IMG/VR virus record: IMGVR_UViG_2824317532_000002
Coordinates: 1-64,000 of that record
Length of the DNA: 64,000 nucleotides
Direction: 5' to 3' (one strand)
Source of the DNA: a virus
Lineage: Duplodnaviria > Caudoviricetes
Shown: piece by piece, positions 15,150-53,491 of the stretch
How positions within the stretch are numbered: the first letter of the stretch is position 1
Layout: each line of letters opens with the position of its first letter
The notes under the pieces: model-generated
Databases searched by the model: none
The model's input: the letters and a program-made list of their open reading frames with translations, nothing else
What the model was told of the DNA's origin: nothing
Program-made: the position numbers and the translations under genes

Positions 15150-15161
15150 CGGGAACCCCTT

Positions 15162-29616: not shown

Positions 29617-32172
29617 CCGGCCACCTCCGCCGGGTGCGGGTTGAGGTCGAACCGGAGCCGGGTGACGTGCACCCACCGCTCCCCGGCCTCGGCCTCGGCC
29701 GGCCACCACCGGGCGAGCAGCCCACACCGCACGCACCGGCCGTACCGCTCGTCGGCGGCGTAGGCGATGTCGGCGGGGATCAGGTCCAGGGCGGCGAGGA
29801 CACGGAGCACCTCGGCGGCGTCGCGGATGCCGTCCATCCCGGCGTACAGCTCCGGCTTACCGTGAACCGGCTTGTGCTTCACGGTGAGGTCGATGCCGCC
29901 GTTGCCGCTACGCCACCGCCACACCTCGACCTCACGGCCATCGGCGAGTTTCCAGGCCAGCTCCAGAGCAGTGGAATCGCGCACGTTGTCGAGCACAAAT
30001 CGCGGCGCGGTGACGCTCTTCTGCTGCCGGGCCCACCGCATCGCGCGGCCCACCGCGCGCCAGTTCGGAAACGTCTTCACAGGACCACCTCCGAGGCGGA
30101 ACGGTGCAGGCGGATGGCGAGCGCGGCGACGGCCTCGGCGAGTTCCCTCGACCCCAGCCGCCCGGCCATCCACTCGGCGAGGTCGACGCTCGCCTCCAGC
30201 ACGTCGAGGCCGTCGCGGTCGGCAGCCTGGGCGAGCAGCCAGTCGACGAGGTTGTTCAGCTCGCGGTCGCGGTCGGCTCGGCGGGCGGCGGGCAGGTCGG
30301 TCGGCTCAGGCACGGCGACCACCGCCTCGACGGCGGATGCCGAACACGTCGTAGAAGTCGTGCCCGTCGGCGGCTTCCTGCTTGCTGATCTCCCGGTAGT
30401 GCCGGTCCCGGACCCACGGCCGGTCGTCGATGCCCGGGAACCCGCAGCACGGCGACGTCCACACCGAGCAGTCGGCGTAGCGGGCGGTGACCTTGACGTG
30501 CGTCAGGCTGTAGACGCCCCGGCAGTGCATGCACCGGACGGGGAACATCATCTCGGCGGCGGGGGGCTGTTCGATCTTCCAGTCGGGAGCCTGAGCCATC
30601 ATGCGTTCACCTCCCAGCGGACCGGGCCGACGACGCGGCAGAACGCCAGCAGCACCCGCCGGTGGTCCACATCGCTGCACGGGCACAGCGGGTGCACGCA
30701 CACCCGGCCCCGCTCGTCGACCTCCGCCGACACGTCGATGCCGGCCCGGTGCAGCTGCTCGCACACGGCCGCCAGGTCCTCGAGGAGTGCCTGCTGCGGG
30801 GTGCGGCAGGTCGCGGCGAACCGGTCCCGGGCACGCATCGCACCCCACCGGGTCCAGGTCAGACCCTCGCCGAGGACGTGCAGCGGGCCGTCTCCGACCT
30901 GCCACGCCCAGCGGCGGTCCAGGCGGTGCGGCATCGGGGTGTGGAGGAAGTCGCGGTAGACGGGGGCGGTCATCGGACACCGCCCTCGGTCGCGCCGGGC
31001 ACCTGCTCGGGCTCGGTGACGAGCCGGATCGTGCGAATGTCCTCCTCGCGGGCGGACAGCGTCAGCTTCCAACGACCGTCGATCTCGGCGTGCATCTGGA
31101 TGCGGTCCGGGCCCTTGTCGCCGCCCGCCTGACCGAACAGGTCCCGCATCATGAACTCGCCACGGCGCGGCCAGGACAGCTGGTGCGCCTGGATGGTCTC
31201 GATGTGCCCGGACATCCAGGTGATCTCGTAGACGTCGGCCGGGCCGCGGTCGATGTCGGTCACCACGAGACCCACCCCCCGAACAGGGCGCGCAGGCGGG
31301 CGACCGGGCCAGGCTGGTCGGCGCTGCGGTGACGGCCGGCCGGCTCGGCGACCGGCCGGTTCGAGTAGAAACGGTTGAACCGGCGCTGCAACGCGTCGAT
31401 CGGCGGCTCCTGGTCGGGCGGGGAGTCGAAGGCCCCGATCGTGCGCGGGATGACGACCCGCTGTTCACCGGTGGCGTTCGGGCGGCGGAACGACGGGGTG
31501 ATGCGGACGGTCGGGGGCTCCGACCCGGACGAGAGCAGGATGCCGAGGGTGTCCCCGATGTCGACGAGGCTCCCGTCGCGGTTGTGAATGGTGATGGTCA
31601 TCTGCGTCTCCTGCGAAGTAGGTGCGAAGCAGGTGGGAAGAGGTGCGAAGTTCGGGGCCCGGGGTGCTGCCTGGCGGGACAGCGCCCCGGGCCGGCGCCG
31701 GGCCCGCTAACGACGGGTCCGGCCGGGTTAGGTCAGGGGGAAGCGGTCGCGTGCCGGGGAATCTCGCCGAGCCCCAGCCCGCCGAGACGCGCCGCCGACT
31801 CCGCGTGGGACGCGCACACCTCGGCGACGGCCAGGAACCAAACGCCCAGGTCCGGGCGGTCGAAACGCACCCGATGAGTCGCGATCTCCGCGCAGATCTC
31901 CGGCAGCGCCGCCGGGGCGATGTCGTCCAGGCGCTCCAGGCCGTCCATGAGCAGCGCCCACGCGCACGGCGCGCTCACCGCCGGTACCCGCTCACCACGT
32001 CGCGCGACAGCGCGTCCCGGCAGGCCGGGCAGGTCGCGTTACGGCCGACGCCGGTGGTGTTGTCCATGAACGGGATCGCCGCCGGGGCCAGGCCGCACGC
32101 GGTCGGGCCGAACTTCTCAGCGACATGCACGACCGGCTCCGGGCGGGCGGCCTCACCGCGGTGGATGGCCAT
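29613..32172 (-). other. Cluster of small hypothetical early genes
   Basis: Overlapping short ORFs with RBSs (e.g. 30077-30322, 30970-31263, 31260-31601, 31733-31978). Confidence 0.5.
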
Positions 32173-35869: not shown

Positions 35870-37150
35870 ATGCCCCGCAATCGGTACCCGACTATCAGGA
35901 AAGGCGCCGATGGGCTCTGGCACGCCTGGATCACCGTCGGCACCAAGCCCAACGGCCGCCCCGACCAGCGGCACATCAAGCGCGAGACCAAGACCTTGGT
36001 CGAGGACCGCATCGACGAGCTACTCGACCAGGTCCGCGGCGGCGCCGTCGTCAAGCCGGGCCGGCCGGACAGTGTCGCCCAGTGGCTCGACACCTACCTC
36101 ACTACGGTCGCCCCGCGGCGGTGCGACCCGGGGACCGTCAAGGACTACCGGTCGAAGATCGACCATTGGGTGCTGCCGGTGATCGGCTCGACCCGGCTCG
36201 ACCGGCTCCAGCCGCACCAGCTCGAGGAGGTCTACCTCGGCATGCAGCGGGCCGGCCGGGCCGACTCCACTCAGCTCAAGGTGCACCGCATCCTGTCGCG
36301 CGCCCTCGAGGTGGCCCTGCGACGGCGCCTGGTGACCCGTAACGTCGCGAAGCTCATCGACGCGCCCACGACGGAGCAGATCGAACAGGCCGCCCTGACG
36401 CGGGAGGACGCTGTCGCGGTGCTCGACGCCGCAGCCGGTCGGCGTAACGCCACCCGGTGGTCGCTGGCCCTGGCGTTGGGCCTGCGTCAGGGTGAGGCGC
36501 TCGGGTTGCGCTGGTCCCATGTCGACCTGGACCGCGGTGAGATCCGCGTGTTCTGGCAGTTGCGACGCAGAGCTTTCGACCACGGTTGCGACGGGGCGTG
36601 CGGCCGGCGGCGGGGCGGGAACTGCCCACAGCGGTCCATGACGCTGCGGTCCGCGGAGTCGACGGTGCTCGACCTGTCGAAGCCGCCGGACAGCGACCGC
36701 CGCACCGGGCTGGTGCTCAAGAGCCCGAAGGGCAAGAGCAAGCGGACCGTGCCGATCCCGGACCAGCTGATCGAGCAACTGCGGCGGCATCAGACGGAGC
36801 AGGGCATCGAGCGGATCCTGGCCGACGACGCGTGGCAGGACCACGGGTTCGTGTTCGCGCGTCTCGACGGACAGCCGATCGATCCCGGACCGGACCACCG
36901 GGAGTGGAAGGCGCTCCTGTCGGCGGCCGGCGTGCCGGAGAGCCGGCTTCACGACGCCCGGCACACGGCGGGAACGATGATGGCCGCGCTCGGTGTGCCC
37001 CTCCAGGTGGTGCAGGAGGTGCTCGGGCACTCCGACCTTCGGACGGCCCGGCGGTATGTGCACGTGGCCAGCGAGATGGCCCGCGCGGCTACGGAGCGCA
37101 TCGGCGGGGCACTGTTCCGGGAGGTAGTACACCCTGACCTACACCCTTGA
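35870..37150 (+). CDS. int: Tyrosine integrase
   Basis: GLRQGEALGLRW, HDARH, LGH, catalytic Y in ARRYVH. Confidence 0.96.
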   Translation: MPRNRYPTIRKGADGLWHAWITVGTKPNGRPDQRHIKRETKTLVEDRIDELLDQVRGGAVVKPGRPDSVAQWLDTYLTTVAPRRCDPGTVKDYRSKIDHWVLPVIGSTRLDRLQPHQLEEVYLGMQRAGRADSTQLKVHRILSRALEVALRRRLVTRNVAKLIDAPTTEQIEQAALTREDAVAVLDAAAGRRNATRWSLALALGLRQGEALGLRWSHVDLDRGEIRVFWQLRRRAFDHGCDGACGRRRGGNCPQRSMTLRSAESTVLDLSKPPDSDRRTGLVLKSPKGKSKRTVPIPDQLIEQLRRHQTEQGIERILADDAWQDHGFVFARLDGQPIDPGPDHREWKALLSAAGVPESRLHDARHTAGTMMAALGVPLQVVQEVLGHSDLRTARRYVHVASEMARAATERIGGALFREVVHPDLHP

Positions 37151-37215: not shown

Positions 37216-37223
37216 GTACCCTG

Positions 37224-37297
37224 AGCCGCCTGTCGGAATCGAACCGACGACCTACGCATTACGAGTGCGTCGCTCTAGCCGACTGAGCTAAGGCGGC
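37224..37297 (-). tRNA. tRNA-Thr(CGT), probable integration target of prophage 1
   Basis: GCCGCCT acceptor stem, TAGCTCAGTCGG D arm, CT-CGT-AA anticodon loop, GGTTCGATTCC T arm; CCA not encoded. Confidence 0.97.
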
Positions 37298-39491: not shown

Positions 39492-41048
39492 ATGACGCCG
39501 CCGCAGATTAAGTCCAAGGCTCGGCTTCGGGCGATGCGCATCGGCCAGCCGGGCATGCAGGCGGCCATCCCTCGCGTGATCATCTACCTGCGGATGAGCC
39601 TCGACAAGACCGGCGAGGGCGCTGGCCTCGAACGGCAGGAGCAAGCATGTCGGGCACTCTGCCTGGCTCGCGGCTGGGAGGTAGTCGCCGTCGTCGAGGA
39701 CACGGTCTCGGCCACCGATTGGCGGCTCGCCGACCGGGCCGGCTGGTCGCAGGTGGTCACGGCGATCGAGGCCGGCGAAGCCGATCTGGTGGTTGCCTGG
39801 CACCTCGACCGAGTAACCCGCGACATGCGCGACCTCGAAGCACTGATCGAGCTTGCCATTGACAAGGGCATCGGTCTGGCCACCGCGACCGGCGACATCG
39901 ACCTCACGACCGACGTGGGCCGCATGGTGGCCCGCATCCTGGCCGCCGTTGCGACCGCCGAGGGTGAACGGAAAGCCGAGCGACAGATTCTGGCCAGCGA
40001 TCAGCGGGTCGCCCGGGGTAAGCCCAACTGGATTCGCCGCCCGTTCGGATTTAACAAGGATGGCACGCACGTTCCCGACGAGGCTGCCGCGATCAAGCAG
40101 GCGTACTACGACTTAGTCAAGGGCAAGGCGCTCACGGCCATCGCCGCGGACTGGAACGAGAAGGGATTCCGCACGAGCGCACCCAGCGAGGAGGAGGCCC
40201 GGCCACGGGCACCTCGTCAGCGCGCCTATAACCCTACCGGCCTGTGGGGCAACGTCGCAGTGAGGCTCCTACTACGCAACCCGCGCAACATGGGCATGAT
40301 CACCCTCTACGGGGAGATCATGGGCAAGGGTTCGTGGAAGCCGATCATCGACGAGGCGACCTTCCTCAAGGTTGACAAGCTTCTCGCGGACCGGCAGCGG
40401 CCCGAGTCCCTCAAGGGCAAGCTGGCCAACCTGCTTTCGGGCATCGCGGAATGCGGCGTGTGCGGCGGCCCGGTACAGGCGACCAAGCGAAACGATGAGC
40501 CGCTCTACACCTGCAAGGGCAACAAGTGGAAACCGGAGGAAGGCCGGGGCCACACGTCCCTCCCGCTCGACTATGCGGAGGGCCTGGTTCTGCGCCGGCT
40601 AGTAGAGCAGATGAAGCGAACGAATCGGGTGTCGTTCCATCCGATGCCGACTGGGGTTGACGTGAGTCCGCTGGAGGCGCGCGAGCGAGCGATTGACAAG
40701 CGGCTCAACGAGCTAATCGTGGAAGAGGTGACTGGCAAGATCACTCGCCAGCAGTTGCATGCGGGTACCGCAGAGCTGCGTCACGAACTGGCTGGCATTC
40801 AGATGGAGATCGCCAGGGCGGGCAGCTTCGGGCCGGTGAAGACCATCGACATCGAGGCGGCTTACGAGGAGTTCGGCGCCCTGGACTTGGGCGAGCAGCG
40901 TGGCATCCTCAGCGATGCGTTCCAGTTCATTCGGCTCATTCAGCGCGGACGGGGGCGGCCACGGGCCGGCGAGCCGATCTGGAAACCCGAGCACCTTGAA
41001 ACTGAGTTCACGCCCGAGTGGCAACGAGTGTTCGAGCCGAAAGCCTGA
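39492..41048 (+). CDS. int: Large serine integrase
   Basis: IYLRMS catalytic Ser, LDRVTRD, RPFGF, LLSGIAECGVCG zinc ribbon, coiled coil. Confidence 0.96.
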   Translation: MTPPQIKSKARLRAMRIGQPGMQAAIPRVIIYLRMSLDKTGEGAGLERQEQACRALCLARGWEVVAVVEDTVSATDWRLADRAGWSQVVTAIEAGEADLVVAWHLDRVTRDMRDLEALIELAIDKGIGLATATGDIDLTTDVGRMVARILAAVATAEGERKAERQILASDQRVARGKPNWIRRPFGFNKDGTHVPDEAAAIKQAYYDLVKGKALTAIAADWNEKGFRTSAPSEEEARPRAPRQRAYNPTGLWGNVAVRLLLRNPRNMGMITLYGEIMGKGSWKPIIDEATFLKVDKLLADRQRPESLKGKLANLLSGIAECGVCGGPVQATKRNDEPLYTCKGNKWKPEEGRGHTSLPLDYAEGLVLRRLVEQMKRTNRVSFHPMPTGVDVSPLEARERAIDKRLNELIVEEVTGKITRQQLHAGTAELRHELAGIQMEIARAGSFGPVKTIDIEAAYEEFGALDLGEQRGILSDAFQFIRLIQRGRGRPRAGEPIWKPEHLETEFTPEWQRVFEPKA

Positions 41049-41478: not shown

Positions 41479-41889
41479 TCAGCCGACGCTCTCGATTTCC
41501 GCCAGGAACAGGGGCAGTGCAGTGATGTTCATGGGATTCACCCAGGCGGGCTTGGAGCGCTTGCTTCCGGACCACCCGCTGGCGCGCTCGGTGAGCACCT
41601 GAACGGTGATGACCTCGTACGGCTCCTCGTAGCGAACCATCGGCCGGGGCGGGGTCAGCCAGTCCGCGATGAAGTCGGCATCCTCGCCGGGCTCGGCCTC
41701 GCGGGCGCGACGTCCTATCCTCTGCTCGACCTTGATCTGCTTGACCTCGCCGACGGCCATCTGCTGTCCCCGGCCTGCCCCGATGCAGTAGATGACCCGC
41801 TCGCCGACCCGAAACCGGTTGCCGAGCCAGTCGACCGCGGAGACCGGTGCGCCGTTCTCGTCGTACTCAGGGCTGCTGGGTTTGCTCAC
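41479..41889 (-). CDS. Hypothetical phage protein
   Basis: 136-aa ORF; GTGA overlap. Confidence 0.65.
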   Translation of the reverse strand: MSKPSSPEYDENGAPVSAVDWLGNRFRVGERVIYCIGAGRGQQMAVGEVKQIKVEQRIGRRAREAEPGEDADFIADWLTPPRPMVRYEEPYEVITVQVLTERASGWSGSKRSKPAWVNPMNITALPLFLAEIESVG

Positions 41890-42308
41890 AGGCTGGCCGC
41901 CTGAGTGATGCCGGCAGCCTCGGCCTGGTCGAGGATCTCTGCCTCCTGGCGGGCGAGTTCGTGTTCGGCGTAGGTGATCGTGTCGTACTGCTCGATGTGG
42001 TAGAACCGGCCGCCTCGCTGGCGAACGACCCGCTCCAGCTCCGCCCAGAACCGTTCGCTGTGCTTGGTGTCCGTGGTGAATGCGTTCGGGGTGACGTATA
42101 CGTGGCGGAACCGCCGACCGAGCAGCCTCTCGGCCGCGTTCGTGCTGTAGACCTGGTTGTCGCGGAACTGCGGGAAGTCGGTGGCTTCCCTGATCCAGGC
42201 GACAACGAGGATGTCGTCGGGGTGGGCCGGCTCGACGTAGCCGACGAGGGCGGCTTCGGTCTTGCCGTTTACCGGCTGGTCGATGACGGCGATTTCGATA
42301 TCGGTCAC
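41886..42308 (-). CDS. Hypothetical phage protein
   Basis: 140-aa ORF; GTGA overlap. Confidence 0.65.
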   Translation of the reverse strand: MTDIEIAVIDQPVNGKTEAALVGYVEPAHPDDILVVAWIREATDFPQFRDNQVYSTNAAERLLGRRFRHVYVTPNAFTTDTKHSERFWAELERVVRQRGGRFYHIEQYDTITYAEHELARQEAEILDQAEAAGITQAASL

Positions 42309-42522
42309 TGGTAGGTCTCCGTCACGTCGATGGGAGCGGCTGCGATGAGGTGGATGCGGAGGGAGTCGATGCGGCCGGGGTCGACGTTGTTGCGGAACCA
42401 GGCCAGCGCGAGCTTGAGGGCCCGCTCACCCTCGTAGTAGCGGGGCTTGAGGGCGCGGCCCTCGACCGTGATGTTGAGCCGGAATATCGGAACCAGCATG
42501 CGGCCAGGTGTCGAGTAAACAC

Positions 42523-43248
42523 TCACGGCGCAACGCGCCCGTGCTTGTTGAACGCGCGCCACGTGACAGGCATGAGGTCGGCGAAGTATTCCTCGACCTG
42601 CTGGGCGGCCCGATCGATTTCCCACAGCGGGTGCGTCGGGAAGTATCGCTCGGCGGTCGCCGTGGATCGAAGGCTCAGGAAGTTGAGCAGCGACCGAGCG
42701 TTGATCGTCCAGAAAAACGACGTGAACACGTTGACTGGGAGAACCTGCCGAGCAACTTCGCGGGCAGCCCCGGAGGCCAGGAGTGCCTCGTACCGGCGAT
42801 ACGATTCCGTCGAATTTTGCATGATCGTGCTGGCGACGACCTCGTGCAGTTCGTCGCCGCCGTCAACCAGCTCGTAGCTCGTTGCCTTGCCGATCTGCAT
42901 GGTGGGGCGCGCACGCGGCGGCACGTAGAACCGGGGTGCGAGCACCTTGTAGCGGGCGCTTTCCTCGTTGAACGAGGAGATCCGGTGTGTACGCCACTCG
43001 CGGATGACAAAGATCGGCGTCTCAATGAAGAACCGCAACGTGCAGTGCTCGAATGGCGTGCCGTGCCGATCGCGCATCAGGAAGCTGATGAAGCGGTCCG
43101 GGTCGGTTGCGGCGATACCCTGACGGCGCGCCTCGTCGATCAGGTTGACGCCTTGCGTGCTGACGCGGGCGGCCCTAATCACGTCGAGGTCGTCGGACAT
43201 GTGGTTGTCCAGCTCCACGGTGGAGTGCGTACGGAACTCGATGGTCAC
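42523..43248 (-). CDS. thyX: FAD-dependent thymidylate synthase
   Basis: AARVS, HGTPFEH, REWRTHRISSFNEESARY, REVARQVLP, NARSLLNFLSLR. Confidence 0.95.
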   Translation of the reverse strand: MTIEFRTHSTVELDNHMSDDLDVIRAARVSTQGVNLIDEARRQGIAATDPDRFISFLMRDRHGTPFEHCTLRFFIETPIFVIREWRTHRISSFNEESARYKVLAPRFYVPPRARPTMQIGKATSYELVDGGDELHEVVASTIMQNSTESYRRYEALLASGAAREVARQVLPVNVFTSFFWTINARSLLNFLSLRSTATAERYFPTHPLWEIDRAAQQVEEYFADLMPVTWRAFNKHGRVAP

Positions 43249-43706
43249 TAGAAGGACTCCGGGTCGGTATCGACGGTGTCGGGGGTCATCGGGACAGGCT
43301 CGGGTTGGTGCTTCTTCTTCACCCACGGAAGCCGGACGGCGGTGTAGCCGCGGGCGATGCTGGCGTTGCGGTAGCCGGACTCGATCACGCCGCAATCGGC
43401 CAGGGCATCGAGCAGCCGCTGATACTTCTCCCAGGTCATCGGCTTGTCGATGATTAGGTGGTTGTGCCCCTCGGTGCTGGAGGGGATTACCTGGACCGGC
43501 AGGTCGATGTCGAGCACGGGCTTGTGCAGTGGGCCGACAGCGGCCTCGACCGCCGGGTCGAGCGCCACCTTGGAGGTCATCACGTTGGCGTCATCGAGGG
43601 TGACGCCTTCGGTGGTGGGGCGGCTGTACTCCTCGCCGGTGTTGTGGTTGAAGTCGACGCGGCCATAGAGCTGACCGGCAAGCGGGGCCTGGAACGAGAC
43701 GTTCAC
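43248..43706 (-). CDS. Hypothetical protein with AEP-like motifs
   Basis: VLDID...SSTEGHNHL. Confidence 0.6.
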   Translation of the reverse strand: MNVSFQAPLAGQLYGRVDFNHNTGEEYSRPTTEGVTLDDANVMTSKVALDPAVEAAVGPLHKPVLDIDLPVQVIPSSTEGHNHLIIDKPMTWEKYQRLLDALADCGVIESGYRNASIARGYTAVRLPWVKKKHQPEPVPMTPDTVDTDPESF

Positions 43707-44380
43707 GCGTACCGCCGGGGAGACAGGAGTTGCTCGCGCAGACGGCTAATGGCGGCGGCCGGGGTGATCCGGTCGATGCCGGAATCGATCGGGGCGAGCA
43801 GGTCGCGCAGGCCGCCGATGCCGGCCTCGTAGCGGTCGACGGCCTTCTTGTACTCGTTGCGCTGGTGCTTGGACTTCTCGACCGCGCTGAGGATGCCCTT
43901 GGCCTCGCCTGCGGTCATGGGCTGCTTCTCGTCAACCCGCTGGCCGAAGAGGCGGGCGATCTTGAGCAGGGCTTCGCGCTCGATGGGGGCCTTGGGCGGG
44001 ACCGGCTGGTCCTCGATTTCGGCCAGCTCGGACTCCAGGTCGCGGACCTTGCGCTCCAGCTCGGCGATGCGGTTGCGCAGGGTAAGGCGTTCTGCGCGCT
44101 CGGCCGTATGCAGTGCGCTGATCGTGTCGCGGGACTTCTTTAGGGCGATCACGCCGTCGAGGGCGCGGCGCATGTTGCTCGGGGACCAGCGGTCGCCGCC
44201 GAGCGGGTTGGTGGACAGCTCGACGCCCAGCTCCCGCGCGACCGCGCCGACGATGACTCGGGCGGCGGCGCCGCGCTCGTTCTCCTGGTGGACGGCGTTC
44301 TCGGCCATGCCCTGGACTGCGCACAGGGCGGCCTTGGTGTTGTCGAGCTGCTTCATCAGCAGGTTCATCTCGGTAGTCAT
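43703..44380 (-). CDS. Coiled-coil hypothetical protein
   Basis: RBS GAGGA; heptad-rich centre. Confidence 0.6.
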   Translation of the reverse strand: MTTEMNLLMKQLDNTKAALCAVQGMAENAVHQENERGAAARVIVGAVARELGVELSTNPLGGDRWSPSNMRRALDGVIALKKSRDTISALHTAERAERLTLRNRIAELERKVRDLESELAEIEDQPVPPKAPIEREALLKIARLFGQRVDEKQPMTAGEAKGILSAVEKSKHQRNEYKKAVDRYEAGIGGLRDLLAPIDSGIDRITPAAAISRLREQLLSPRRYA

Positions 44381-44598
44381 GCGCGGACGTTCCTCCTGCT
44401 CATCCCGGTCAGGTGCCAGAGGCCGGCCGGGCATTCGTAGTGACGGTTCTCGACTCGCATTCCGCGGCGGGTGCCGGCCTTGTCGGCGGCGCGGCTACGG
44501 TGGGTCCGGGCCCTTCCGAGGGCCTTGCTGGCGTCGTGTTCGCAGGTGAACCCGCGCTTCTCGCACGTGTCGCACCAGGTGTGACTGACGGTCTTCAT
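44377..44598 (-). CDS. Small Zn-binding protein
   Basis: CDTC...YECPAGLWHLT. Confidence 0.6.
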   Translation of the reverse strand: MKTVSHTWCDTCEKRGFTCEHDASKALGRARTHRSRAADKAGTRRGMRVENRHYECPAGLWHLTGMSRRNVRA

Positions 44599-44614
44599 GG
44601 CTGCTGATCACTCG

Positions 44615-45046
44615 CTACTTTCGGAACTTGTCGCAGGGGCAGACTTCGAGCCCGCATCGGCCGCGGGCAGAACCGTCCATGAGGTGGGCCCATCCGGCAT
44701 GTCCACAGTCGGGGTGCTGGCAGAAATCCTTGGCCCCCTTGCGGGAGCTGACGTTGCCGAGCAGGCGGCCGGTGCTGTTGAGGGTGACGACGGAGAACTC
44801 CCCGCCGAGCCCGCCGAGCTTCTCGCCCGTGCTGGTGGCGTCGATGACGCTGGCGAATGGGCCCCAGTTGAGGCCGAGCTGCCCCTTGCTGAATCGGTGA
44901 GAGAGGGCAACCCAGTCGCGCATGGCCATCAGGTCGGCCATGTCTTTGAGCAGGGCTTTCGCCATCTGCTCGGGGGTGTCGTAGTCGCCGGATTCGAGGA
45001 TGCCGACTACGCGCTTGACCTCTTCGGCCCGGGGGGTGAATCGCAC
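44615..45046 (-). CDS. Hypothetical protein with C-terminal Cys/His domain
   Basis: CGH...H...C...CPC. Confidence 0.6.
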   Translation of the reverse strand: MRFTPRAEEVKRVVGILESGDYDTPEQMAKALLKDMADLMAMRDWVALSHRFSKGQLGLNWGPFASVIDATSTGEKLGGLGGEFSVVTLNSTGRLLGNVSSRKGAKDFCQHPDCGHAGWAHLMDGSARGRCGLEVCPCDKFRK

Positions 45047-45069
45047 TCACTGACTCCCAGGACTAGACT

Positions 45070-45687
45070 TCACACCTTGGCAACGCTGACGGGCTCCAGG
45101 TAGCGCGCGGCGACCGGCCAGCCGGTGGGGCGGGAGGACCAGGGGGACGCGTTGTCGAACACGACCATCCAGGTCGGTTCCAGGGCGCCAGGCTGCGGGC
45201 CGATGACCGTGCCGAAGCTGCCCGTCTTCACGCCGAAGATTTCACCGTTCACGATGAGGCGTACCCGCTGGTTGACGGTGATCTCGGGGCCGGCCTCCAG
45301 CGGGGCGACCTCGTCCGGCTTGAGCGGCATGACCAGGCCGTTGCCGTCTCGGACGTGCAGCATCTCGCCGTAGATCCGCTCGACCACGCAGACGGCTCCG
45401 GGGGTGATGGCGAGCGCGTAGTCGGCGGTGAGCACCTTGATCAGGTCGCCGAGCTTGTAGCCGTCCAGGTCGGCGAGGGACAGCTCGTCGTAGTTGGTGA
45501 CGACGGCCGGCAAGTAGCAGGAGACGGCCGGGTCGAACATGCGGGCCTGGAGCACCTCGGACCACCATCCGCCGTTGCGCTCGCGGGTCCAGTGGTCGCC
45601 GTCCTTGTCGCGGATAACGGTTCCGACCGGTAGGGCGGCGAGTTGTTCGATGGCGGCGATCTCGCGGGTCAGCAGGTTGGTGCTCAC
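45070..45687 (-). CDS. Hypothetical multi-SH3-like domain protein
   Basis: LPVGTVIRDKDGDHW, YKLGDLIKV repeats; RBS GAGGAG. Confidence 0.65.
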   Translation of the reverse strand: MSTNLLTREIAAIEQLAALPVGTVIRDKDGDHWTRERNGGWWSEVLQARMFDPAVSCYLPAVVTNYDELSLADLDGYKLGDLIKVLTADYALAITPGAVCVVERIYGEMLHVRDGNGLVMPLKPDEVAPLEAGPEITVNQRVRLIVNGEIFGVKTGSFGTVIGPQPGALEPTWMVVFDNASPWSSRPTGWPVAARYLEPVSVAKV

Positions 45688-45723
45688 TGGCTCTCCTCGG
45701 TGTGCGTCGTGCTTGCGAGGACA

Positions 45724-45752
45724 AGACTACACACCGATGCCGCCCGTGTTAA
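45724..45752 (-). promoter_or_regulatory. Sigma70-type promoter overlapped by two 13-bp motifs
   Basis: TTAACA-N17-TAGTCT. Confidence 0.65.
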
Positions 45753-45759
45753 GTCTTAA

Positions 45760-46152
45760 CTAGGTGCTGGGGGCCACATTCTTGCGAGGGTCCTGGCGGT
45801 CGTCGTACAGGGCCCGCATCTCCTCGCTCGCGCCCCACTCCAACATGGCGAACGCGTGCCAGGCCACGGCCACAAGGTGCGGCTGCCCGGTCTCCGCGTC
45901 CATGTCCTCGCCAGCCCAGAACGCCCAAGCGTGGCGCTGCATCGCGGCGAACGAGGAGGACCAGGGGTAGCCCTTGCGCCAGTTGTCGACCTCGCCGGCC
46001 CCGCTCGGGTACTTCTCGGGGCCGATGCCGTACCTCTCGGCCAGCAGGCGCAGCGGGCCAGATGGGATCAGGTCGTAGCGGGCTCGCTTAACGTCCTTGG
46101 CGCCGCCCGTCTCGCTGACGGGGCGCGTTACCTGCGGTTTGTCCGGGGTCAC
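45760..46152 (-). CDS. dATP/dGTP diphosphohydrolase domain protein (DUF5664)
   Basis: RYDLIP, G.EKY...NWRKG, AAMQRH, GED.D.ETG.PHL...AW. Confidence 0.85.
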   Translation of the reverse strand: MTPDKPQVTRPVSETGGAKDVKRARYDLIPSGPLRLLAERYGIGPEKYPSGAGEVDNWRKGYPWSSSFAAMQRHAWAFWAGEDMDAETGQPHLVAVAWHAFAMLEWGASEEMRALYDDRQDPRKNVAPST

Positions 46153-46295
46153 TCGGCGGCTCCTTGTCTCGTTTCCATCTGGCTTCCAACTCCGCCCGAA
46201 TCTCGGCGGCCCGCTCGATAGGGAACACTCCCGGGCGCGGGCCGAACGCGCCGGGCCTACGTTCTGGCTGCTTCTCGCTGGTCATGTCCTCGACG

Positions 46296-46595
46296 CTACG
46301 CCGTGGCGGGGCCGGTCAGAATGGCCTCCCACATCACCGGGCTACGCAGCCGCTGGCCGGCGCCCACCTTTGCGCGCACCGCGTCGCGGGGCACGATGCG
46401 CCGGTTGAACCGGGAGGCGCGGTCGACCTGGCCGGGCTGGCGGCCGTGGTCCGCGGCGAGGAACTTGACGTACACCCACTCACCGGTGATCAGCTCGACC
46501 CGGCAGCGGCTGAGTGTGTCGTCATCGTTCACCCAGTAGGCCAGGTCGCCCGCCTCGACGATCCAGCGCCGTTGGTCGGTTATGAACGTCGCCAT
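46296..46595 (-). CDS. Hypothetical phage protein
   Basis: 99-aa ORF with GGAG RBS. Confidence 0.55.
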   Translation of the reverse strand: MATFITDQRRWIVEAGDLAYWVNDDDTLSRCRVELITGEWVYVKFLAADHGRQPGQVDRASRFNRRIVPRDAVRAKVGAGQRLRSPVMWEAILTGPATA

Positions 46596-46642
46596 GCTGT
46601 CAGTCTCCGTCGTTAAGCGCCGCCTTGGGCGCGGAATTCCGT

Positions 46643-47047
46643 CTATGCCGCTGACTCGCGGTCGAGCACTGATACCCAGGTGGGGGACACGTCGAGCAAC
46701 GCGGCGACATCGCGCACGGTCAGCTTCATGCTCCTCAGCCTGGCCACGGCTTGCCGGGTCTGCTGGTCGGCCTGTCGCTGAGCCTCGGCCGCAGCGTCCT
46801 TGGCCGCTTTCACGCCGGCCACCACGTTCGCGACCTGCCCGGACGGGGTGATGGTCACCGCGAAGCTGTCCGCCGGTACGTCGAGCAGGAGAGAGAGCAT
46901 GTCCCGCACCATCGGCTCAACGTCGGCTAGCTTGCGCGCCTGCGTGTACGCCATGTCCACGCCGGGGACCTCGACGAACCACCAGTCCCCGGACCTTCTC
47001 ACCCGCGCCTCGTAGGTCTTCACCGCTCGAAGCTCCCTCGTGCTCAT
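46643..47047 (-). CDS. hicB: HicB-like antitoxin
   Basis: WWFVEVPGV..YTQARKL..VEPMVRD; C-terminal HTH LTVRDVAALLDVS. Confidence 0.85.
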   Translation of the reverse strand: MSTRELRAVKTYEARVRRSGDWWFVEVPGVDMAYTQARKLADVEPMVRDMLSLLLDVPADSFAVTITPSGQVANVVAGVKAAKDAAAEAQRQADQQTRQAVARLRSMKLTVRDVAALLDVSPTWVSVLDRESAA

Positions 47048-47232
47048 TTGTCCACCCCTCGCAGGATCGCTCGCGCTGTCATCTCGTTGATCTCGGCGTG
47101 CCGGGGGATAACCACATTGCGCCCGTTGTACCGGTACACGCTGTGACTTCCTCCCTCTCGCACGAACTCGAACGCCGCACCCTGCTCCTTGGCCTTGCGC
47201 TCCAGGGAGGCTATCAGTTCTCGCCGCTTCAC
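47044..47232 (-). CDS. hicA: HicA toxin
   Basis: REGGSHSVY...IPRHAEINEMTARAIL. Confidence 0.9.
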   Translation of the reverse strand: MKRRELIASLERKAKEQGAAFEFVREGGSHSVYRYNGRNVVIPRHAEINEMTARAILRGVDK

Positions 47233-47282
47233 ATGTTTAGTCTATTCTACTGGACGGATCTTGTAAAGTTGAGTGCACAGCC

Positions 47283-47687
47283 TCAGTGCACAACGTCGAT
47301 CAGCGGGACGGTCTCAACCTTGCGGGTGCGCGGCTTGGGCTTCCTGAACGCATGCCGCACCTTCTCGCGGCACCACTGCCAGTGCTTGACGTGCATCTCG
47401 TGGTGGCGCTCGTTGGGCTCGCGGGCCTCCCAATCCTCGACGTCCCGCACAGTCCGCTTGAACGCCAGCTCGACGCCTTGGGTGCCGTGCCTGGCCAGAA
47501 CCATCTTGACCGTCTCCCGGACCACGTAGATCCGGTTGTGGTCACGCGAGTGGTACGGCATCTGGTCGATACGGGACGCCCAATGCGTCGCCAGGTACAG
47601 CGCCTTCGCGTAGTCGTCGGGCTCCAGGCGGTGCTCGACCTTGCAGGGCATGAGCGACCGGGCCAGCTCGGACAGGTGGCGGATCAT
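47283..47687 (-). CDS. Hypothetical phage protein
   Basis: ORF with upstream GAGGAG; start uncertain. Confidence 0.55.
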   Translation of the reverse strand: MIRHLSELARSLMPCKVEHRLEPDDYAKALYLATHWASRIDQMPYHSRDHNRIYVVRETVKMVLARHGTQGVELAFKRTVRDVEDWEAREPNERHHEMHVKHWQWCREKVRHAFRKPKPRTRKVETVPLIDVVH

Positions 47688-47733
47688 CGGGTCATGTCTC
47701 CTCTGTCGATGGTGCGGGGAAGTGGCGTGATCA

Positions 47734-49131
47734 CTAGGCGGGTTGAGCAACCGCCTCCCCCAGAGCCTCGGCGACGACCTTGAGCACTGGCTCCCACGAG
47801 TCGACGGCGTGCCCGGCCGCCAGGACTACGTTCACGGTTCGGCTCCTCGATGGCGTGGTCACTTGGAAGGCGGCCCCCAGCGACTGGCGGGCGGTATTCA
47901 AGGCCACGCGCACCTCCGTGCCGAGCGCCCGCGTGGGGCTACCGATCCGCAGGTCGAACGTGAAGCCGTCGACCTCGCCCCGACCGGCCACGCTCACCGT
48001 GTTCAGTCGCGCCACCGGCTCCGGGGTCGACGCCTTGCGCTGGTCCGGCACCGTCGACTTCTTCGGGCCGGGCATCGCAGGCTTCGGCGGGACGGTCATC
48101 TTCCCCGCCTTCGGCTTGGGGGCCGCCTTCGGTTTCGCGGCCGGCTTGGACCTGGTCGAGACTTCGGCCTTGGACGCCTCGGCCAGGTGGCGTGTTGCGA
48201 ACCACGTCACCTGGCTCAGGATCTGACTTTCGGCCAGCTCGCGATCGAAGTCCTTGCAGGAGCACTTCCAGTGGTACAGCGGGACGTAGGTCAGGGCTCC
48301 GGCGTCGTCGTAGCCGGATACGGCCAGGCTCTGAGTCATGACCAGCTTGTGACCCGGGATCGGCTCGAACTTCGGCAGAACCTCGCGGGCAGGCTTCGCG
48401 GGCGTCGGCTCGGTCCCGGCAGCCTGCTGCGTCTCCACGAGGTGGCCGTGGCTCATCAGGTGCCGGGCAGCCTGCCGGGCGGCCTGGCCTGCGTAGTACA
48501 CGGTCTCGCGCTCCTGCGCCTTCGCGCCGCATTCGCACCGCCAGGTATGCCCGTCTGCCCAGTCGTTGAACTGGATCCCGCCGAAGACTTCGACCCGGTG
48601 CCCCGGCTCAATACGGAGCTTCCAAATCCTGTTCTCGCCAGCGGGCAGACCGCAACTGGCGTCGTCTGCGATTTCAGCGAAAGCCTCAGTCTCCGTGACA
48701 TACACGGGCACGGGGTAGCACCCGGCGATCACCGCTTCGGGGTCGAGGTCATGGCGCAGCTTTGCCCACACCTCAGTCACGACGGTGACCGGCTCGGGTT
48801 CCGACTCGGCCGACATGACCTCCAGACCGGGCAGGGCCTCCGGCTCGACCGGCTCGACCGGCTCGACCGGCGCGGCTGGCGCGGCTGGGGCCCGCTGGCC
48901 CATTTGCCGGATGTACCGCGCGGTGTCGAATTCGATTCCGATACCGGCCGCCCACGCTCCAGCCTCAGTGGTCACGTACTGGCCGGATTCTTCGGCCTCG
49001 ATCCACTCGGCGACAATGCACGCCGCGATGGTGGAGTCGCGCGGTCGGGTCAGCTTGGCGCTCTCGTGTCCGGCGTACCGCAGGATCGCGTTTCGCTGCG
49101 CCGGGGTCGGCTTCCTGGCGATCGTTCCCAT
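47734..49131 (-). CDS. Hypothetical multidomain early protein
   Basis: Two WxCxC...H zinc-like motifs, PVE tandem linker, Lys/Pro linker. Confidence 0.7.
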   Translation of the reverse strand: MGTIARKPTPAQRNAILRYAGHESAKLTRPRDSTIAACIVAEWIEAEESGQYVTTEAGAWAAGIGIEFDTARYIRQMGQRAPAAPAAPVEPVEPVEPEALPGLEVMSAESEPEPVTVVTEVWAKLRHDLDPEAVIAGCYPVPVYVTETEAFAEIADDASCGLPAGENRIWKLRIEPGHRVEVFGGIQFNDWADGHTWRCECGAKAQERETVYYAGQAARQAARHLMSHGHLVETQQAAGTEPTPAKPAREVLPKFEPIPGHKLVMTQSLAVSGYDDAGALTYVPLYHWKCSCKDFDRELAESQILSQVTWFATRHLAEASKAEVSTRSKPAAKPKAAPKPKAGKMTVPPKPAMPGPKKSTVPDQRKASTPEPVARLNTVSVAGRGEVDGFTFDLRIGSPTRALGTEVRVALNTARQSLGAAFQVTTPSRSRTVNVVLAAGHAVDSWEPVLKVVAEALGEAVAQPA

Positions 49132-49159
49132 GGCGGATCCCTTCATCATGACTAAACAC

Positions 49160-49483
49160 CTACTCCTTGCGAGTGCGCTCTTCCGCGCACACCTCGCGCC
49201 ACTGCTCGATAACCTGGCCACGCAGGATCGTCAGGCCGGAAACCATGTCGTCGAGCGTGTCGATCAAGTGGCTCAGCGCGTCTGATCGGTTCTCCGGGTA
49301 CTCGCCCGCCTCCCTGGCGCGCAGTGTCGCGTTCTCGCCAGGCTTGCGGTCCGGCGGCGACACGTACACCGTGCCCGACACATCCCAGATGCCCTGGAGC
49401 GTCGCCGCGCCAGCACGGACCGCGCGCAGGACTTTCAGGATGTGGCGACGACTCGCGGCACGCGGGCTACCGGAACGGCTCAC
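49160..49483 (-). CDS. Hypothetical early protein
   Basis: GTGA overlap with upstream gene. Confidence 0.55.
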   Translation of the reverse strand: MSRSGSPRAASRRHILKVLRAVRAGAATLQGIWDVSGTVYVSPPDRKPGENATLRAREAGEYPENRSDALSHLIDTLDDMVSGLTILRGQVIEQWREVCAEERTRKE

Positions 49484-49836
49484 CGGGTCACGCCCACGGC
49501 GTCAGCGATCACGAGCAGGTCATCGGCCGTACGGTGGTCGAGCCAGACGACGCTGTACGCCAAACCCAGGTCATGCGTGCAGTCACCGTCAAGGCGCGAC
49601 GGACCGTAGACGGTACCCTCACGGTCGCGCTCCACCATGAGATCAATCTCCAGCGCGGCCGGAGCGCATGACTGCGGACCTTCCGGGTCTTCCGGATTGT
49701 TCGGCATCCATGCCAGTTCGCCGCGCTCCAGCTCGGCACGCAAGTACTCCCACGCCTCACGGGCAGTGTCGAATACCGGCGGCTCGTCATCCATCGGCAG
49801 GTAGCCAGGGATGTTCACGTAGGCAGTAAATGACAT
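49480..49836 (-). CDS. Acidic early protein
   Basis: NIPGYLPMDDEPPVFDT..EAW; RBS. Confidence 0.7.
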   Translation of the reverse strand: MSFTAYVNIPGYLPMDDEPPVFDTAREAWEYLRAELERGELAWMPNNPEDPEGPQSCAPAALEIDLMVERDREGTVYGPSRLDGDCTHDLGLAYSVVWLDHRTADDLLVIADAVGVTR

Positions 49837-49865
49837 TGCATTCCCTCTCTGCGGGCATTCTTACG

Positions 49866-49918
49866 TGCCCCGGGCAGGGATCGAACCTGCATTCGCACGC
49901 CTGTTGTGCGCCCGGGGC
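49866..49918 (-). ncRNA. D-arm-less tRNA-like element
   Basis: GCCCCGG-G-CGCAC(AACAGGC)GTGCG-AAT-GCAGG(TTCGATC)CCTGC-CCGGGGC-A. Confidence 0.7.
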
Positions 49919-49923
49919 CAACA

Positions 49924-50283
49924 TCAGTTGTCGAGCAGCAAATCGGTCATGTCATCGGGCTCCGGCAGGTAGTGCGCGCCAAGCGCATCGCGCGTGTCGG
50001 CACTAGACAGGCTCAGCGCGTCCGTAAGGATGGCCTTCCACCACTCATCCATCGGCGCTTCTTCCAGCCATTCCGAGAGCAGGTTCGCGACCGCGATTCC
50101 AACCACGCGCACGCAGTCGGAATAGTCGGCACCGTGCGCATAGGCCGCCCGGTATGCATCCTGGCTCGGCGGGACTGATCCCATGTCGTTAACGATTGCC
50201 TCCTGCGCGGCTTCCGTGATCGCGTAGTAGCGCGCGAAGTCATTGTTGTCAGCGATAAGTGTCACGGCGTCAATGAGACTCAT
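49924..50283 (-). CDS. Acidic early protein
   Basis: 119 aa, Asp/Glu-rich; GAGAGG RBS. Confidence 0.7.
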   Translation of the reverse strand: MSLIDAVTLIADNNDFARYYAITEAAQEAIVNDMGSVPPSQDAYRAAYAHGADYSDCVRVVGIAVANLLSEWLEEAPMDEWWKAILTDALSLSSADTRDALGAHYLPEPDDMTDLLLDN

Positions 50284-50343
50284 TGGGGTTTCCTCTCAGC
50301 ATTGCCCACGGAATGCAGGCAGGGGGGTGAAGGCGAATTCGGA

Positions 50344-50715
50344 TCAGTACTGCGGAAGGTCTTTCCAGCCGTCCACATCTTTGCCGCCGTCCGTGACGAA
50401 ACGGTGTTCCAGGTAAGCGAGCATCGCCGTGCGAATCGCAAGGTCCGATTCGGTAGGGTCGCCATGCGGAGAATCCATCCACCAGCCAAAGAGGGATTCG
50501 TCCATGTAATCCACTGGCGTTGCGAATTGATCCTCAGCGTGGTTGAAGTCGTATGGGAAGGCAAAGTTTCCTGTGCTGTCAAACCAGCAGGAAGCCCAGT
50601 TCCACGTGTAGGCGTGCGCGAACTGGCGCGCGGCGCGATCGGAAATGATGGCGTCATTCGCGTTAGCCTCGCGAGCCTCAGCCAGCGACCAGCTACTCAC
50701 GTGCGCATTTCCCAT
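50344..50715 (-). CDS. Acidic aromatic-rich early protein
   Basis: 123 aa, many D/E and W/F. Confidence 0.7.
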   Translation of the reverse strand: MGNAHVSSWSLAEAREANANDAIISDRAARQFAHAYTWNWASCWFDSTGNFAFPYDFNHAEDQFATPVDYMDESLFGWWMDSPHGDPTESDLAIRTAMLAYLEHRFVTDGGKDVDGWKDLPQY

Positions 50716-50746
50716 TAGGCCGTTCCGTTCTCTCGGTATTGCGGAG

Positions 50747-50794
50747 TGCCGTACCGGGCCATGACACCCGTGCCCGCCTACGCGGGAGTACGGC
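50747..50794 (-). ncRNA. Second tRNA-like three-way junction
   Basis: GCCGTAC-T-CCCGC(GTAG)GCGGG-CA-CGGGT(GTCATG)GCCCG-GTACGGC-A. Confidence 0.55.
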
Positions 50795-50800
50795 CGTGAA

Positions 50801-51178
50801 TCATTCGCGCGACATCTGAGCGGAGTAGTTCAGGAACGTTTGGCCAGACATGCCCGTGCCGTACCGGCTGGCGCAGTTCGGGCAGAGGTAGTAGCCATCG
50901 GCCGGAACGCTGTCGATGAACACGCGCGCCGGAATGGTGCGGAACCGTGCCGTGTCCATGTGGCAAATGAGGCACAGCTCGCCGCGCTCACCGCTCTTCG
51001 CATAGAACGCCAGCGTTTCCACCAGGGTCCATGCCGCACGATGAGCCTCTTCGCAGGTCCACAGGTACGCGTTCCGGTCCTGGGGCAGGCCCGTCTCGTC
51101 GGCCTTCCGCGCAGCTCTACTGATCTTGAGATCCCAGAGGTCCCGTAGGTCAACAATCAAACGCAATTCAGGGGTCAT
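50801..51178 (-). CDS. Zn-finger early protein
   Basis: CLIC...LCPNC; GGAG RBS. Confidence 0.65.
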   Translation of the reverse strand: MTPELRLIVDLRDLWDLKISRAARKADETGLPQDRNAYLWTCEEAHRAAWTLVETLAFYAKSGERGELCLICHMDTARFRTIPARVFIDSVPADGYYLCPNCASRYGTGMSGQTFLNYSAQMSRE

Positions 51179-51242
51179 GGTAAGACTCCATTTCGTGAGG
51201 GAGGAATTGCAGGGGGAAGTGCCTCGGATCTCAGTCCGTGAG

Positions 51243-51317
51243 TGGCAGGCCATCATCGGGCACGGAATGCCAATCCGCGCGACGGTATGACCCGTTTCCG
51301 GGTCCACCGTTTCGGCC
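51243..51317 (-). ncRNA. Type II hammerhead ribozyme (variant core, pseudoknot)
   Basis: GGCC-GAAA-stem III-GUC-stem I-CCGAUGA-U-GGCC-UGCCA; three helices pair and loop I is complementary to the 3' tail. Confidence 0.85.
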
Positions 51318-51323
51318 GTGAAA

Positions 51324-51971
51324 TCAGACCAGCGCGGGTCGTCCGAGCGATTTCCGCTTGAGGTTGCGAAGCGAGATCAGTAGGAACTTCTCGGCCGAGT
51401 CACCCCAGATCACATCGTTACCGGAACACTCCGGGTAGAAGTCGTCCTCGCTCACCGCCTGCCAGAAACCCTGTTCGATTTCCTCGCGAGTGAATTCGTC
51501 CGCCACTTCCTGCCACCACTCCGGAAGGTCGGAGTACAGATCGGCGAACAGGTAGCCGCTGAATGACTCGTGAGCAGCCTCGTATTCAAGCTCACTCAAG
51601 TCGGACTCGTCGTAAACCGGGTACTGCTCTTTCAGGCCGATGACCGTGTTGATCAGGCGATCCGAAACCGAGTGCAGGAAGAACCCGAGTCCGTCGCACC
51701 CGGTGTATCCGACACGAAAGAACGCCATGCCGTAATCGCGCTCCAAGCTGCGGAAGTTGCTGATCTCCCAGAATGAGACCTGTCCCGCCCAATCCTCAGA
51801 GATCGCGCCGTCCACCTCGACAAACGGGCGCTCCGTCTCGTCGTAAGCGAACGGGTGAGCGTAAGCGGAGTGAATCCGGCCCTTCTCGTAAACGTCGGCC
51901 GGATCGGCGTAGCGCACGCTGAAACCAGCGCGCTTCAAATCGTCGATACGCTCTGCAAGCTTGACGTTCAT
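51324..51971 (-). CDS. Highly acidic first early protein
   Basis: 215 aa; YPVYDESDLSELEYE; first gene after the leftward promoter. Confidence 0.75.
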   Translation of the reverse strand: MNVKLAERIDDLKRAGFSVRYADPADVYEKGRIHSAYAHPFAYDETERPFVEVDGAISEDWAGQVSFWEISNFRSLERDYGMAFFRVGYTGCDGLGFFLHSVSDRLINTVIGLKEQYPVYDESDLSELEYEAAHESFSGYLFADLYSDLPEWWQEVADEFTREEIEQGFWQAVSEDDFYPECSGNDVIWGDSAEKFLLISLRNLKRKSLGRPALV

Positions 51972-52042: not shown

Positions 52043-52071
52043 ACGCTAGTCCAGGACAAGACTAAACACAA
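52043..52071 (-). promoter_or_regulatory. Putative major early leftward promoter with operator in the spacer
   Basis: TTGTGT-N17-TAGCGT; 13-bp motif at 52057-52069; 5' hairpin TCGGTTCG/CGAACCGA. Confidence 0.6.
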
Positions 52072-52470: not shown

Positions 52471-52989
52471 GTCGCCCAAGACGCGACGAAGCGCCGCCAC
52501 CCGATGGGCAACGGCGCTGGTCAGACAGTGTTCCGGCGGCGAGCTAGTCCTCGTACATGGCTGCCCGGTTCGCCTCCTGAAATTCCTCCTGGCTGAGGTC
52601 GCCGGCAAGGTGCATGCCCAGGGTTGTGTAGGTGACGTGAGCGACTTCCAGGCGCTGCATCACCGATCAGCCCGTGATGGTCTCTCATGTTCTTACCTGG
52701 CTGCCCGACCTACGCGGCCACGGTACCAAGGCCGATCCGTCCTGTAAGTGAACGAGGCCAGGACGATTGCGGTGTATGGCCGGTTGGTCTCATCGAAGGA
52801 AGCGGCTCCCATAGGACATGACTATACACGACCGGGGCCTTCGGCCCCACGAGCGGGTTAGCCGGCTAGCAAGGGATTCCGCTGCCTTCTCTTCGCCGAT
52901 GCATGGGGCCTCCGGCCCCTGTGGGTTTCCTTCGCCGCTGGGCGATCACATGGCTGGTTCTCTTGGAAGGGTTCAAGAGCATGGTTTGG

Positions 52990-53163
52990 GTGCACTCCAC
53001 TGCACCCCGGTTACGAACTAGAGTTCACCCCGGTCAGGAACTACAGTGCACCCCGGTTGCCGGACCGGGGTGAATCCCACTGCACCCCTGTGGATAAACC
53101 GGGGTGAACTGCGCTGCACCCCGCCTGAGCTGCGAAAACAAGCCGGGGTGAACTGGAGTGCAC
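52990..53163. repeat. CACCCC(GGT) iteron-like array with DnaA box
   Basis: Direct copies at 53003, 53026, 53049 (23-bp period), inverted copies, TGTGGATAA at 53089-53097. Confidence 0.7.
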
Positions 53164-53491
53164 CTCGGTCTGCCGCCGACGCAATCCCGGGGTCGTGACC
53201 TGAACCACAGCCAACCTCCGTTAGCCCGAGCTGAACCCGTACTACTAGTGAAGGGGTTAACCAGTAAGCCTGCTGACCAGCTAGCCAACTACCGAGCTAG
53301 CCCAGTAGAGAGCTAGGAAGTTAGAGAGCTTGGATCTGACGAGCCAACCCGCTGACCCGGTTGGAAGTTGGAGAGATGAAGAGCTTGGATCTAACCCGCT
53401 AGCCGGTTAACCCCAGCAGACCAGGTCTCGGGTCTACGCCTACGGGCAAACGTAGCCGAGACCTACAGCAAGACAGTACTGGTGGTGACTC

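Follow-up and report, generated by a model that had tools for sequence, protein, structure and literature searches.

Between two leftward early genes of a prophage lies a 53-nt stretch that folds like part of a tRNA, and we asked which part of a tRNA it retains, where it came from and what, if anything, it does at this site. The window, by which we mean the whole 64,000-nt stretch of DNA that was analysed, is a contig of Actinoplanes campanulatus JCM 3059 (100% identity) and carries two prophages side by side (Table 1). The tRNA-Thr(CGT) gene next to the tyrosine integrase is probably the attachment site of the left prophage; it is the only host-type tRNA gene in the window and has no encoded CCA. 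The element itself lies within the leftward early operon of the second, serine-integrase prophage, on the coding strand, where it sits in an 87-nt spacer (the other spacers of the operon measure -148 to 214 nt). None of the proteins encoded on either side of it matched a Pfam or PHROG family that has to do with tRNA. A cysteine-rich 45-aa open reading frame (49787-49924, minus strand) overlaps the element, and its start overlaps the stop of the upstream ORF (TGATG); we rejected it as coding on a GC3 of 0.59 against 0.75 for its neighbours, which is a weak test at such a length.

The wider early region holds several further features. A 17-nt motif (AGGACAAGACTAHACAC on the plus strand) occurs in four copies, at 45059, 45718, 52053 and 52813, the last two of which lie upstream of the operon; as judged from their sequence, these copies are candidate leftward early phage promoters, one of them perhaps feeding the operon of the element. 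The early region also encodes a HicA toxin (47044-47232, minus strand; PF07927, 33 bits) together with a HicB-like antitoxin (46643-47047, minus strand), and between the divergent early and late blocks a repeat of 24-28 nt is present in four copies, partly as inverted pairs (52988-53169), which could be operator, origin or cos-type sites.

Table 1. Coordinates of the tRNA-like element, its parts and its surroundings in the window
Feature	Position	Strand	Remarks
Left prophage	1-37300		ends at tyrosine integrase
Left prophage, capsid	11538-12914		
Left prophage, portal	13750-15234		
Left prophage, RecT	27556-28374		
Left prophage, YqaJ-like exonuclease	28588-29736		
Left prophage, tyrosine integrase	35870-37150		
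tRNA-Thr(CGT)	37223-37297		adjoins tyrosine integrase
Second prophage, serine integrase	39492-41048		
Second prophage, early genes	41479-51971		leftward
Second prophage, terminase, portal, protease, scaffold and capsid genes	from 54367		rightward
Downstream early ORF, 118 aa	49480..49836	-	ATG 29 nt past element; ribosome-binding motif GAGAGGGAA precedes start
Whole 53-nt anticodon-arm-less tRNA-like element	49866..49918	-	from fold, scans and chance tests
Discriminator A	49866	-	followed by CGT; CCA not encoded
Acceptor stem, 3' strand	49867..49873	-	
T arm	49874..49890	-	5-bp stem, loop TTCGATC; satisfies GGTTCRANYCC
Connector, 4 nt	49891..49894	-	G26-like base and AAT, at the site of tRNA positions 27-45
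D arm	49895..49909	-	4-bp stem GCAC/GTGC, 7-nt loop with A14, A15, G18 and G19; lacks A21
Positions 8-9	49910..49911	-	G, C; usual U8 absent
Acceptor stem, 5' strand (element positions 1-7)	49912..49918	-	7/7 Watson-Crick with 49867-49873
Upstream early ORF, 119 aa	49924..50283	-	no family; stop codon 5 nt before element
17-nt motif copy	52053..52069	-	TAGTCT, -10-like hexamer, in the reverse complement

The structure at this site is real. An earlier note on this DNA had described a 7-bp acceptor stem, a T arm, a 5-bp hairpin with a 7-nt loop and a discriminator A, and all of them are present on the minus strand. The note was also right that no CCA is encoded after the discriminator; the sequence 3' of the element reads ACGTAAGAA, and the core of the T arm reads GGTTCGATCC. 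Mismatches and G-U pairs are absent from the 16-17 base pairs of the element, all of which are Watson-Crick, and the third acceptor pair is C:G. C9 is able to pair with the G at 49894 and would then supply the fifth pair of the hairpin, which in this 5-bp form is joined to the acceptor stem by a 1-nt linker and separated from the T stem by a 3-nt spacer. We scanned the window for GTTCRANYC with a 5/5 T stem and a 7/7 acceptor stem within 75 nt, allowing Watson-Crick pairs only. The only matches were the element and tRNA-Thr(CGT), from which the element differs, as had been claimed, and the same scan of 600 Markov-1 random 64-kb windows gave no match at all. With a looser scan, 0.13 matches are expected per window.

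In folding calculations the three-helix form reaches -29.2 kcal/mol, 1.5 kcal/mol above the minimum free energy (MFE) fold at -30.7 kcal/mol, in which the outer stem is lengthened to 9 bp, and the 66-nt context is more stable than shuffled sequences (z -2.54; 2 of 200 shuffles were equally stable). The long outer stem and this stability would also suit a plain GC-rich hairpin that acts as a terminator, an attenuator or a protector of a 3' end, its likeness to a tRNA being irrelevant. We consider that reading very unlikely: no T run follows the 3' side of the stem, the element does not appear in the scan for intrinsic terminators, and a plain hairpin leaves both the exact T-arm consensus and the D-arm signature unexplained.

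The earlier note had taken the element for a tRNA without its D arm, and here the assignment has to be reversed, as the middle hairpin is the D arm and it is the anticodon arm (positions 27-45) that is absent. When aligned with real actinophage tRNAs using MAFFT, the hairpin falls on the D arm, and the numbering of the element follows canonical tRNA numbering through position 20, with G10, C11, A14, A15, G18 and G19 in place. A covariance model built from the element as a single sequence led to the tRNA-Arg(TCT) of Mycobacterium phage StAugustine, from whose D arm (GCAC/GTGC, a loop beginning AAC, and GG) the hairpin differs by one substitution and one extra base. Local alignment of element positions 10-25 against 30 tRNAs likewise ranked the D arm of this tRNA-Arg (its positions 10-25) best, with a score of 22 against 16 for the next. 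The note had been correct in reporting that U33 is lacking, since the hairpin loop has A at both 32 and 33, and Y32 is missing too. The size of the hairpin, 5 bp with a 7-nt loop, is that of an anticodon arm and is what speaks for a decoding D-armless tRNA. The results contradict such a tRNA, however, and we give it practically no credence: besides the missing U33 and Y32 and the match of the hairpin to a real D arm, the hairpin follows the acceptor stem after a single nucleotide, and ARAGORN in the mitochondrial modes that had been suggested for this locus (-mt, -mt -ps and -mtx) returned 0 genes, although D-armless tRNAs are allowed in them.

The remaining parts of the element point to the same kind of source. 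Its T arm and acceptor 3' strand are identical at 26 of 27 or 25 of 26 positions (96%) to actinophage tRNA-Met, tRNA-Arg and tRNA-Lys genes, found in phages of Gordonia, Mycobacterium and Rhodococcus. From this near-identity we conclude that the element descends from a phage-type tRNA gene, and by sequence its derivation from a tRNA is nearly certain. The closest likenesses are to StAugustine tRNA-Arg(TCT) in the D arm and to the tRNA-Met of Gordonia phage Bantam in the acceptor stem and T arm; these are, however, full decoding tRNAs of 73-76 nt, whereas the element is without positions 27-45. It further departs from the tRNA norm in G8, C9, the missing A21 and the 4-nt connector. Owing to G8, the missing A21 and the short connector, the canonical elbow of the element may not form; the last T of the connector could serve as the 15:48 partner of A15. 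A Mycolicibacterium plasmid tRNA-Leu has a variable arm that resembles the element (76.9% identity, E=5); we put this down to chance.

Standard searches for tRNAs and known RNA families pass over the element. ARAGORN with default settings did not call it, and at an 80% threshold the program proposed a 97-nt 'tRNA-Ile' at about 49865-49961 that shares the T arm, which we regard as a low-threshold artefact. Among the Rfam tRNA clan, the best score on an 86-nt stretch was 13.2 bits (tRNA-Sec, E=2), where the threshold of RF00005 is 29 bits. An Rfam search of 2 kb gave nothing on the minus strand. The best Rfam match was on the opposite strand, to a plastid leader family (23.6 bits against a threshold of 65.7 bits). 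No tmRNA was found by ARAGORN -m or Rfam. The tRNA-like domain of tmRNA resembles the element in having an acceptor stem and a T arm, a reduced D region and no anticodon, but the element is far smaller and lacks both an mRNA-like domain and G3:U70. The earlier note had also called the element mascRNA-like. MascRNA and menRNA are small tRNA-like RNAs that RNase P and RNase Z cut from a longer transcript and that are then CCA-tailed. Their family (RF01684) is absent among Rfam matches with E up to 10, and they are eukaryotic and nuclear and retain a four-arm cloverleaf, so that the comparison holds as an analogy and does not extend to an Rfam match.

The same architecture recurs in many phages. 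In IMG/VR we looked for GGTTCRA lying 1-16 nt after a standard D arm, an arrangement that is impossible for an ordinary tRNA, and obtained at least 117 loci (L053-L169). Among the 117 matches listed, 79 have a full T stem; the 38 without one, mostly tRNA-His genes in which the anticodon stem mimics the motif, were dropped. If G-U pairs are counted, 59 of these 79 listed loci have a complete 7/7 acceptor stem, 11 have 6/7 pairs and 9 have fewer. The 59 intact loci among the matches listed comprise 50 distinct sequences and 44 distinct acceptor strands, with a length of 56-63 nt (mode 58) and a connector of 6-13 nt (mode 8), and ARAGORN called none of the 59. Another tRNA lies within 300 nt of 10 of these 59 listed members, while the other 49 stand alone, and the GC content of the listed loci ranges from 25 to 69%. 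Across the 50 distinct sequences, changes on both sides of a pair occur at all seven acceptor pairs and at three T-stem pairs; the 100% pairing in this set arises by construction, intact stems having been selected, and the finding is the diversity of the stems. The standard D arm of the members is in the same way forced by the search pattern.

In a second IMG/VR scan, with a gap of 17-22 nt, at least 117 loci (L191-L307) were found. Of the 117 matches listed, 85 have their stems intact and 95 yielded no tRNA call with ARAGORN; these tRNA-likes possess normal acceptor, D and T arms with 14-19 nt between the D and T arms. Forms with a stunted anticodon arm are thus common as well, and the length distribution provides no argument for one sharp class.

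A BLAST search with a class member as query returned 42 phage records. Anticodon-arm-less tRNA-like elements of phages are commonly left unannotated or labelled 'tRNA-OTHER'. Polaribacter phage Danklef carries a 58-nt example, annotated 'tRNA-OTHER, Undet (NNN)', which is flanked by two genes on the same strand and ends 13 nt short of the next start; Lactococcus phage ul36 has a related element (about 207-266) that is unannotated and whose acceptor stem is paired 7/7. We found no description of anticodon-arm-less tRNA-like genes in phages in the literature searched, in which subscription journals are thinly covered.

With these phage mini-tRNAs the Actinoplanes element shares a 7-bp acceptor stem, a D arm with A14 and G18G19 joined directly to the T arm, and the lack of an ARAGORN call; members of the class usually have no CCA and are often solitary between genes. 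The element has the 7/7 acceptor stem, the 5/5 T stem, the A14/G18/G19 D arm and the short connector of the class, and no anticodon arm. It differs in being 53 nt long with a 4-nt connector, GC at positions 8-9, a D stem of the GCAC type and no A21, whereas class members measure 56-63 nt, have connectors of 6-13 nt and carry TA at 8-9. When scored with a model of the 50 class sequences, the element reached 16.6 bits (E 0.0047 over 361 kb), rising to 27.3 bits once filters were switched off, and ordinary tRNAs reached 31-52 bits, so that the model does not separate the class and the element is assigned to it by architecture only. By that architecture the element is a compact variant of a widespread and poorly annotated kind of phage tRNA-like.

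The Lactococcus elements raise the matter of integration. In ul36 the element is found some 240 nt past the 3' end of the integrase gene, and the match coordinates place those of other P335-group phages at the same distance. This is where attP is expected, which suggests a link between some mini-tRNAs and integration. The Actinoplanes element could by the same token be the relic of an attachment site, or the landing pad of a tRNA-targeting integrase, all the more as the other prophage of the window probably integrated at tRNA-Thr. The evidence at the locus itself makes this extremely unlikely. The element includes a 5' acceptor strand and a D arm and so amounts to more than the 3' part of a tRNA, and the only integrase of the prophage is a serine integrase 8.8 kb away. 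No second copy of either half of the element exists within the window, even with up to 3 mismatches allowed, and the element is distinct from the tRNA-Thr in question.

Relatives of this exact element are scarce. No near match to 12.8 kb of the early region was present in the phage collection, and a distant search gave one match of 98 nt. The exact 24-mer of T arm and acceptor strand occurs at 1 unrelated locus in IMG/VR. A loop-anchored pattern gave 5 matches in IMG/VR, none of which folds, and a pattern for the GCAC-type D arm gave 21 matches, 1 of which (L185) is a compact tRNA-like. The exact pattern of acceptor stem and T arm was found in 0 of 3 genomes and in 0 of the 401 Actinomycetes genomes sampled. 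The downstream ORF has homologues of 36-77% identity at 3 viral, 3 non-self genomic and 17 metagenomic loci, and a tRNA-like element precedes the homologue at 0 of these 23 non-self loci; for the upstream ORF, no relative was found in IMG/VR. Sixteen viral loci with a portal 32-67% identical to that of the prophage have the structural module in common with it and not the early genes; mini-tRNAs occur in none of these 16 loci, and 4 of them contain ordinary single tRNA genes, 5 in all. In the collections searched the element is thus a singleton. Of sequencing runs containing the stretch, one was listed, a DNA run that is probably its source, and none was of RNA.

These results bear most directly on the possibility that the element is a dead remnant, i.e., a phage tRNA gene that suffered one internal deletion of its anticodon arm and is now transcribed passively or not at all, with no function. 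This is the main and a serious rival, which we rate as rather unlikely but well worth weighing. The single tRNA genes of the portal-related phages supply a plausible starting point, aberrant tRNA-likes stand beside real tRNAs in the loci L003, L009 and L001, the element is a singleton lacking comparators, and G8 and the missing A21 resemble drift. However, while positions 8 and 21 have changed, every pair of the element is still Watson-Crick, and decay would be expected in the stems too. The anticodon arm has also been cleanly lost, and the stems kept intact, in tRNA-likes of unrelated viral contigs with at least 44 different acceptor stems, and the element fills a tight spacer on the same strand as its neighbours. 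The earlier argument that the intact helices speak against a decayed tRNA or att remnant stands in part: the stems are flawless and, as far as the window shows, the locus does not look like an attachment site, but a decayed copy stays plausible.

The explanation that we tentatively prefer, at somewhat less than even confidence, is that the element descends from an Arg-like phage tRNA, is excised by RNase P and RNase Z and thereby splits the early transcript. It is established that RNase P, RNase Z and the CCA-adding enzyme recognise a tRNA by its acceptor/T-arm half and its elbow and not by the anticodon arm, which a tRNA needs for decoding only. Because the retained part is the part that these enzymes read, the element sits inside an operon and no CCA is present, excision by RNase P together with RNase Z is favoured, and such a signal fits the sequence at each of these points. 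Like tRNA-Thr(CGT), the element has no CCA and is therefore predicted to be an RNase Z-type substrate. Counting against this explanation, some members of the class lie near attP and outside operons.

The proposed course of events would start from an actinophage tRNA gene of the Arg-like type that lost exactly its anticodon arm. With the acceptor stem, D arm and T arm kept, the helix of acceptor stem and T arm would still form, and probably the D/T elbow as well. The element would be transcribed as part of the leftward early operon of the serine-integrase prophage in Actinoplanes campanulatus. Host RNase P would then cut at the 5' end, between 49919 and 49918, and host RNase Z would cut after the discriminator at 49866, because no CCA follows. 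The message would be split such that the upstream mRNA ends 5 nt past its stop codon and the downstream mRNA gains a 29-nt leader, with a presumed effect on expression. An RNA of about 53 nt would be released, which the CCA-adding enzyme could tail.

The closest published analogues are the t-elements of plant mitochondria. According to Forner et al. (2007; PMC1920247), t-elements are non-canonical tRNA-like folds with a GGTTCRANYCC motif, and their ends coincide with mRNA termini and were assigned to RNase P and RNase Z. The Actinoplanes element resembles them in this motif, in an acceptor-like stem, in its place on the transcribed strand beside protein genes and in its proposed role as a cis-signal for RNase P/Z. 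The two differ in that t-elements belong to an organelle genome and have mapped RNA ends, whereas the element belongs to a bacterial prophage and is described from sequence alone, and they have no sequence homology to each other.

A different view of the same excised RNA is that the CCA-tailed mini-tRNA is itself the product, a non-decoding mimic that binds a factor reading the acceptor end or the elbow. Such a factor might be a defence toxin that modifies the 3' ends of tRNAs, a synthetase, EF-Tu or a sensor of tRNA damage. The anatomy of the element is as expected here as it is for a processing signal, 49 of the 59 listed class members stand apart from tRNA clusters, and some phages carry members outside operons, where punctuation makes little sense. 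Even so, we think a mimic improbable, as no protein family turns up repeatedly within 300 nt of the 50 class members, the neighbours of the element have no tRNA-related family, and the element has no recognised identity set, with neither G3:U70 nor an anticodon. It is tempting to speculate that the element is one of a large group of phage RNAs, as yet undescribed, that are excised by the host, CCA-tailed and act as acceptor-end mimics, absorbing toxins or hijacking a synthetase or EF-Tu, although the chance that this is so appears small. The earlier note also proposed a decoy for anticodon nucleases, which is unlikely since such enzymes would have no anticodon loop to bind or cleave; the element may yet be a decoy for factors that read the acceptor end.

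If excision by RNase P and RNase Z is indeed the role of the element, temperate bacterial phages would punctuate their messages with the tRNA-trimming enzymes of the host, a strategy so far documented for organelles. More generally, tRNA finders miss a common feature of phages, with at least 59 intact anticodon-arm-less mini-tRNAs and at least 85 tRNA-likes with stunted arms. What the mini-tRNAs retain is precisely the portion of a tRNA recognised by processing enzymes, CCA-adding enzymes and several defence enzymes, which makes them candidates for processing signals or counter-defence decoys.

Two phages encountered in these searches carry aberrant tRNA-likes of their own. L003, an IMG/VR phage whose homologue of the downstream ORF is 45% identical, has two that are adjacent (4309-4376 and 4390-4487), 1.5 kb downstream of the homologue and between same-strand genes, and ARAGORN calls neither. 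One scores 38.4 bits, above the Rfam tRNA threshold, and has a 12-nt stump in place of the anticodon arm; the other, of about 98 nt, combines an acceptor stem and a T arm with extra inner hairpins. In Gordonia phage Fryberger (L009), several unannotated pieces bearing a T arm are located at 280-870, upstream of two annotated tRNAs, and one of these pieces, 62 nt long (315-376), has a 7/7 acceptor stem.
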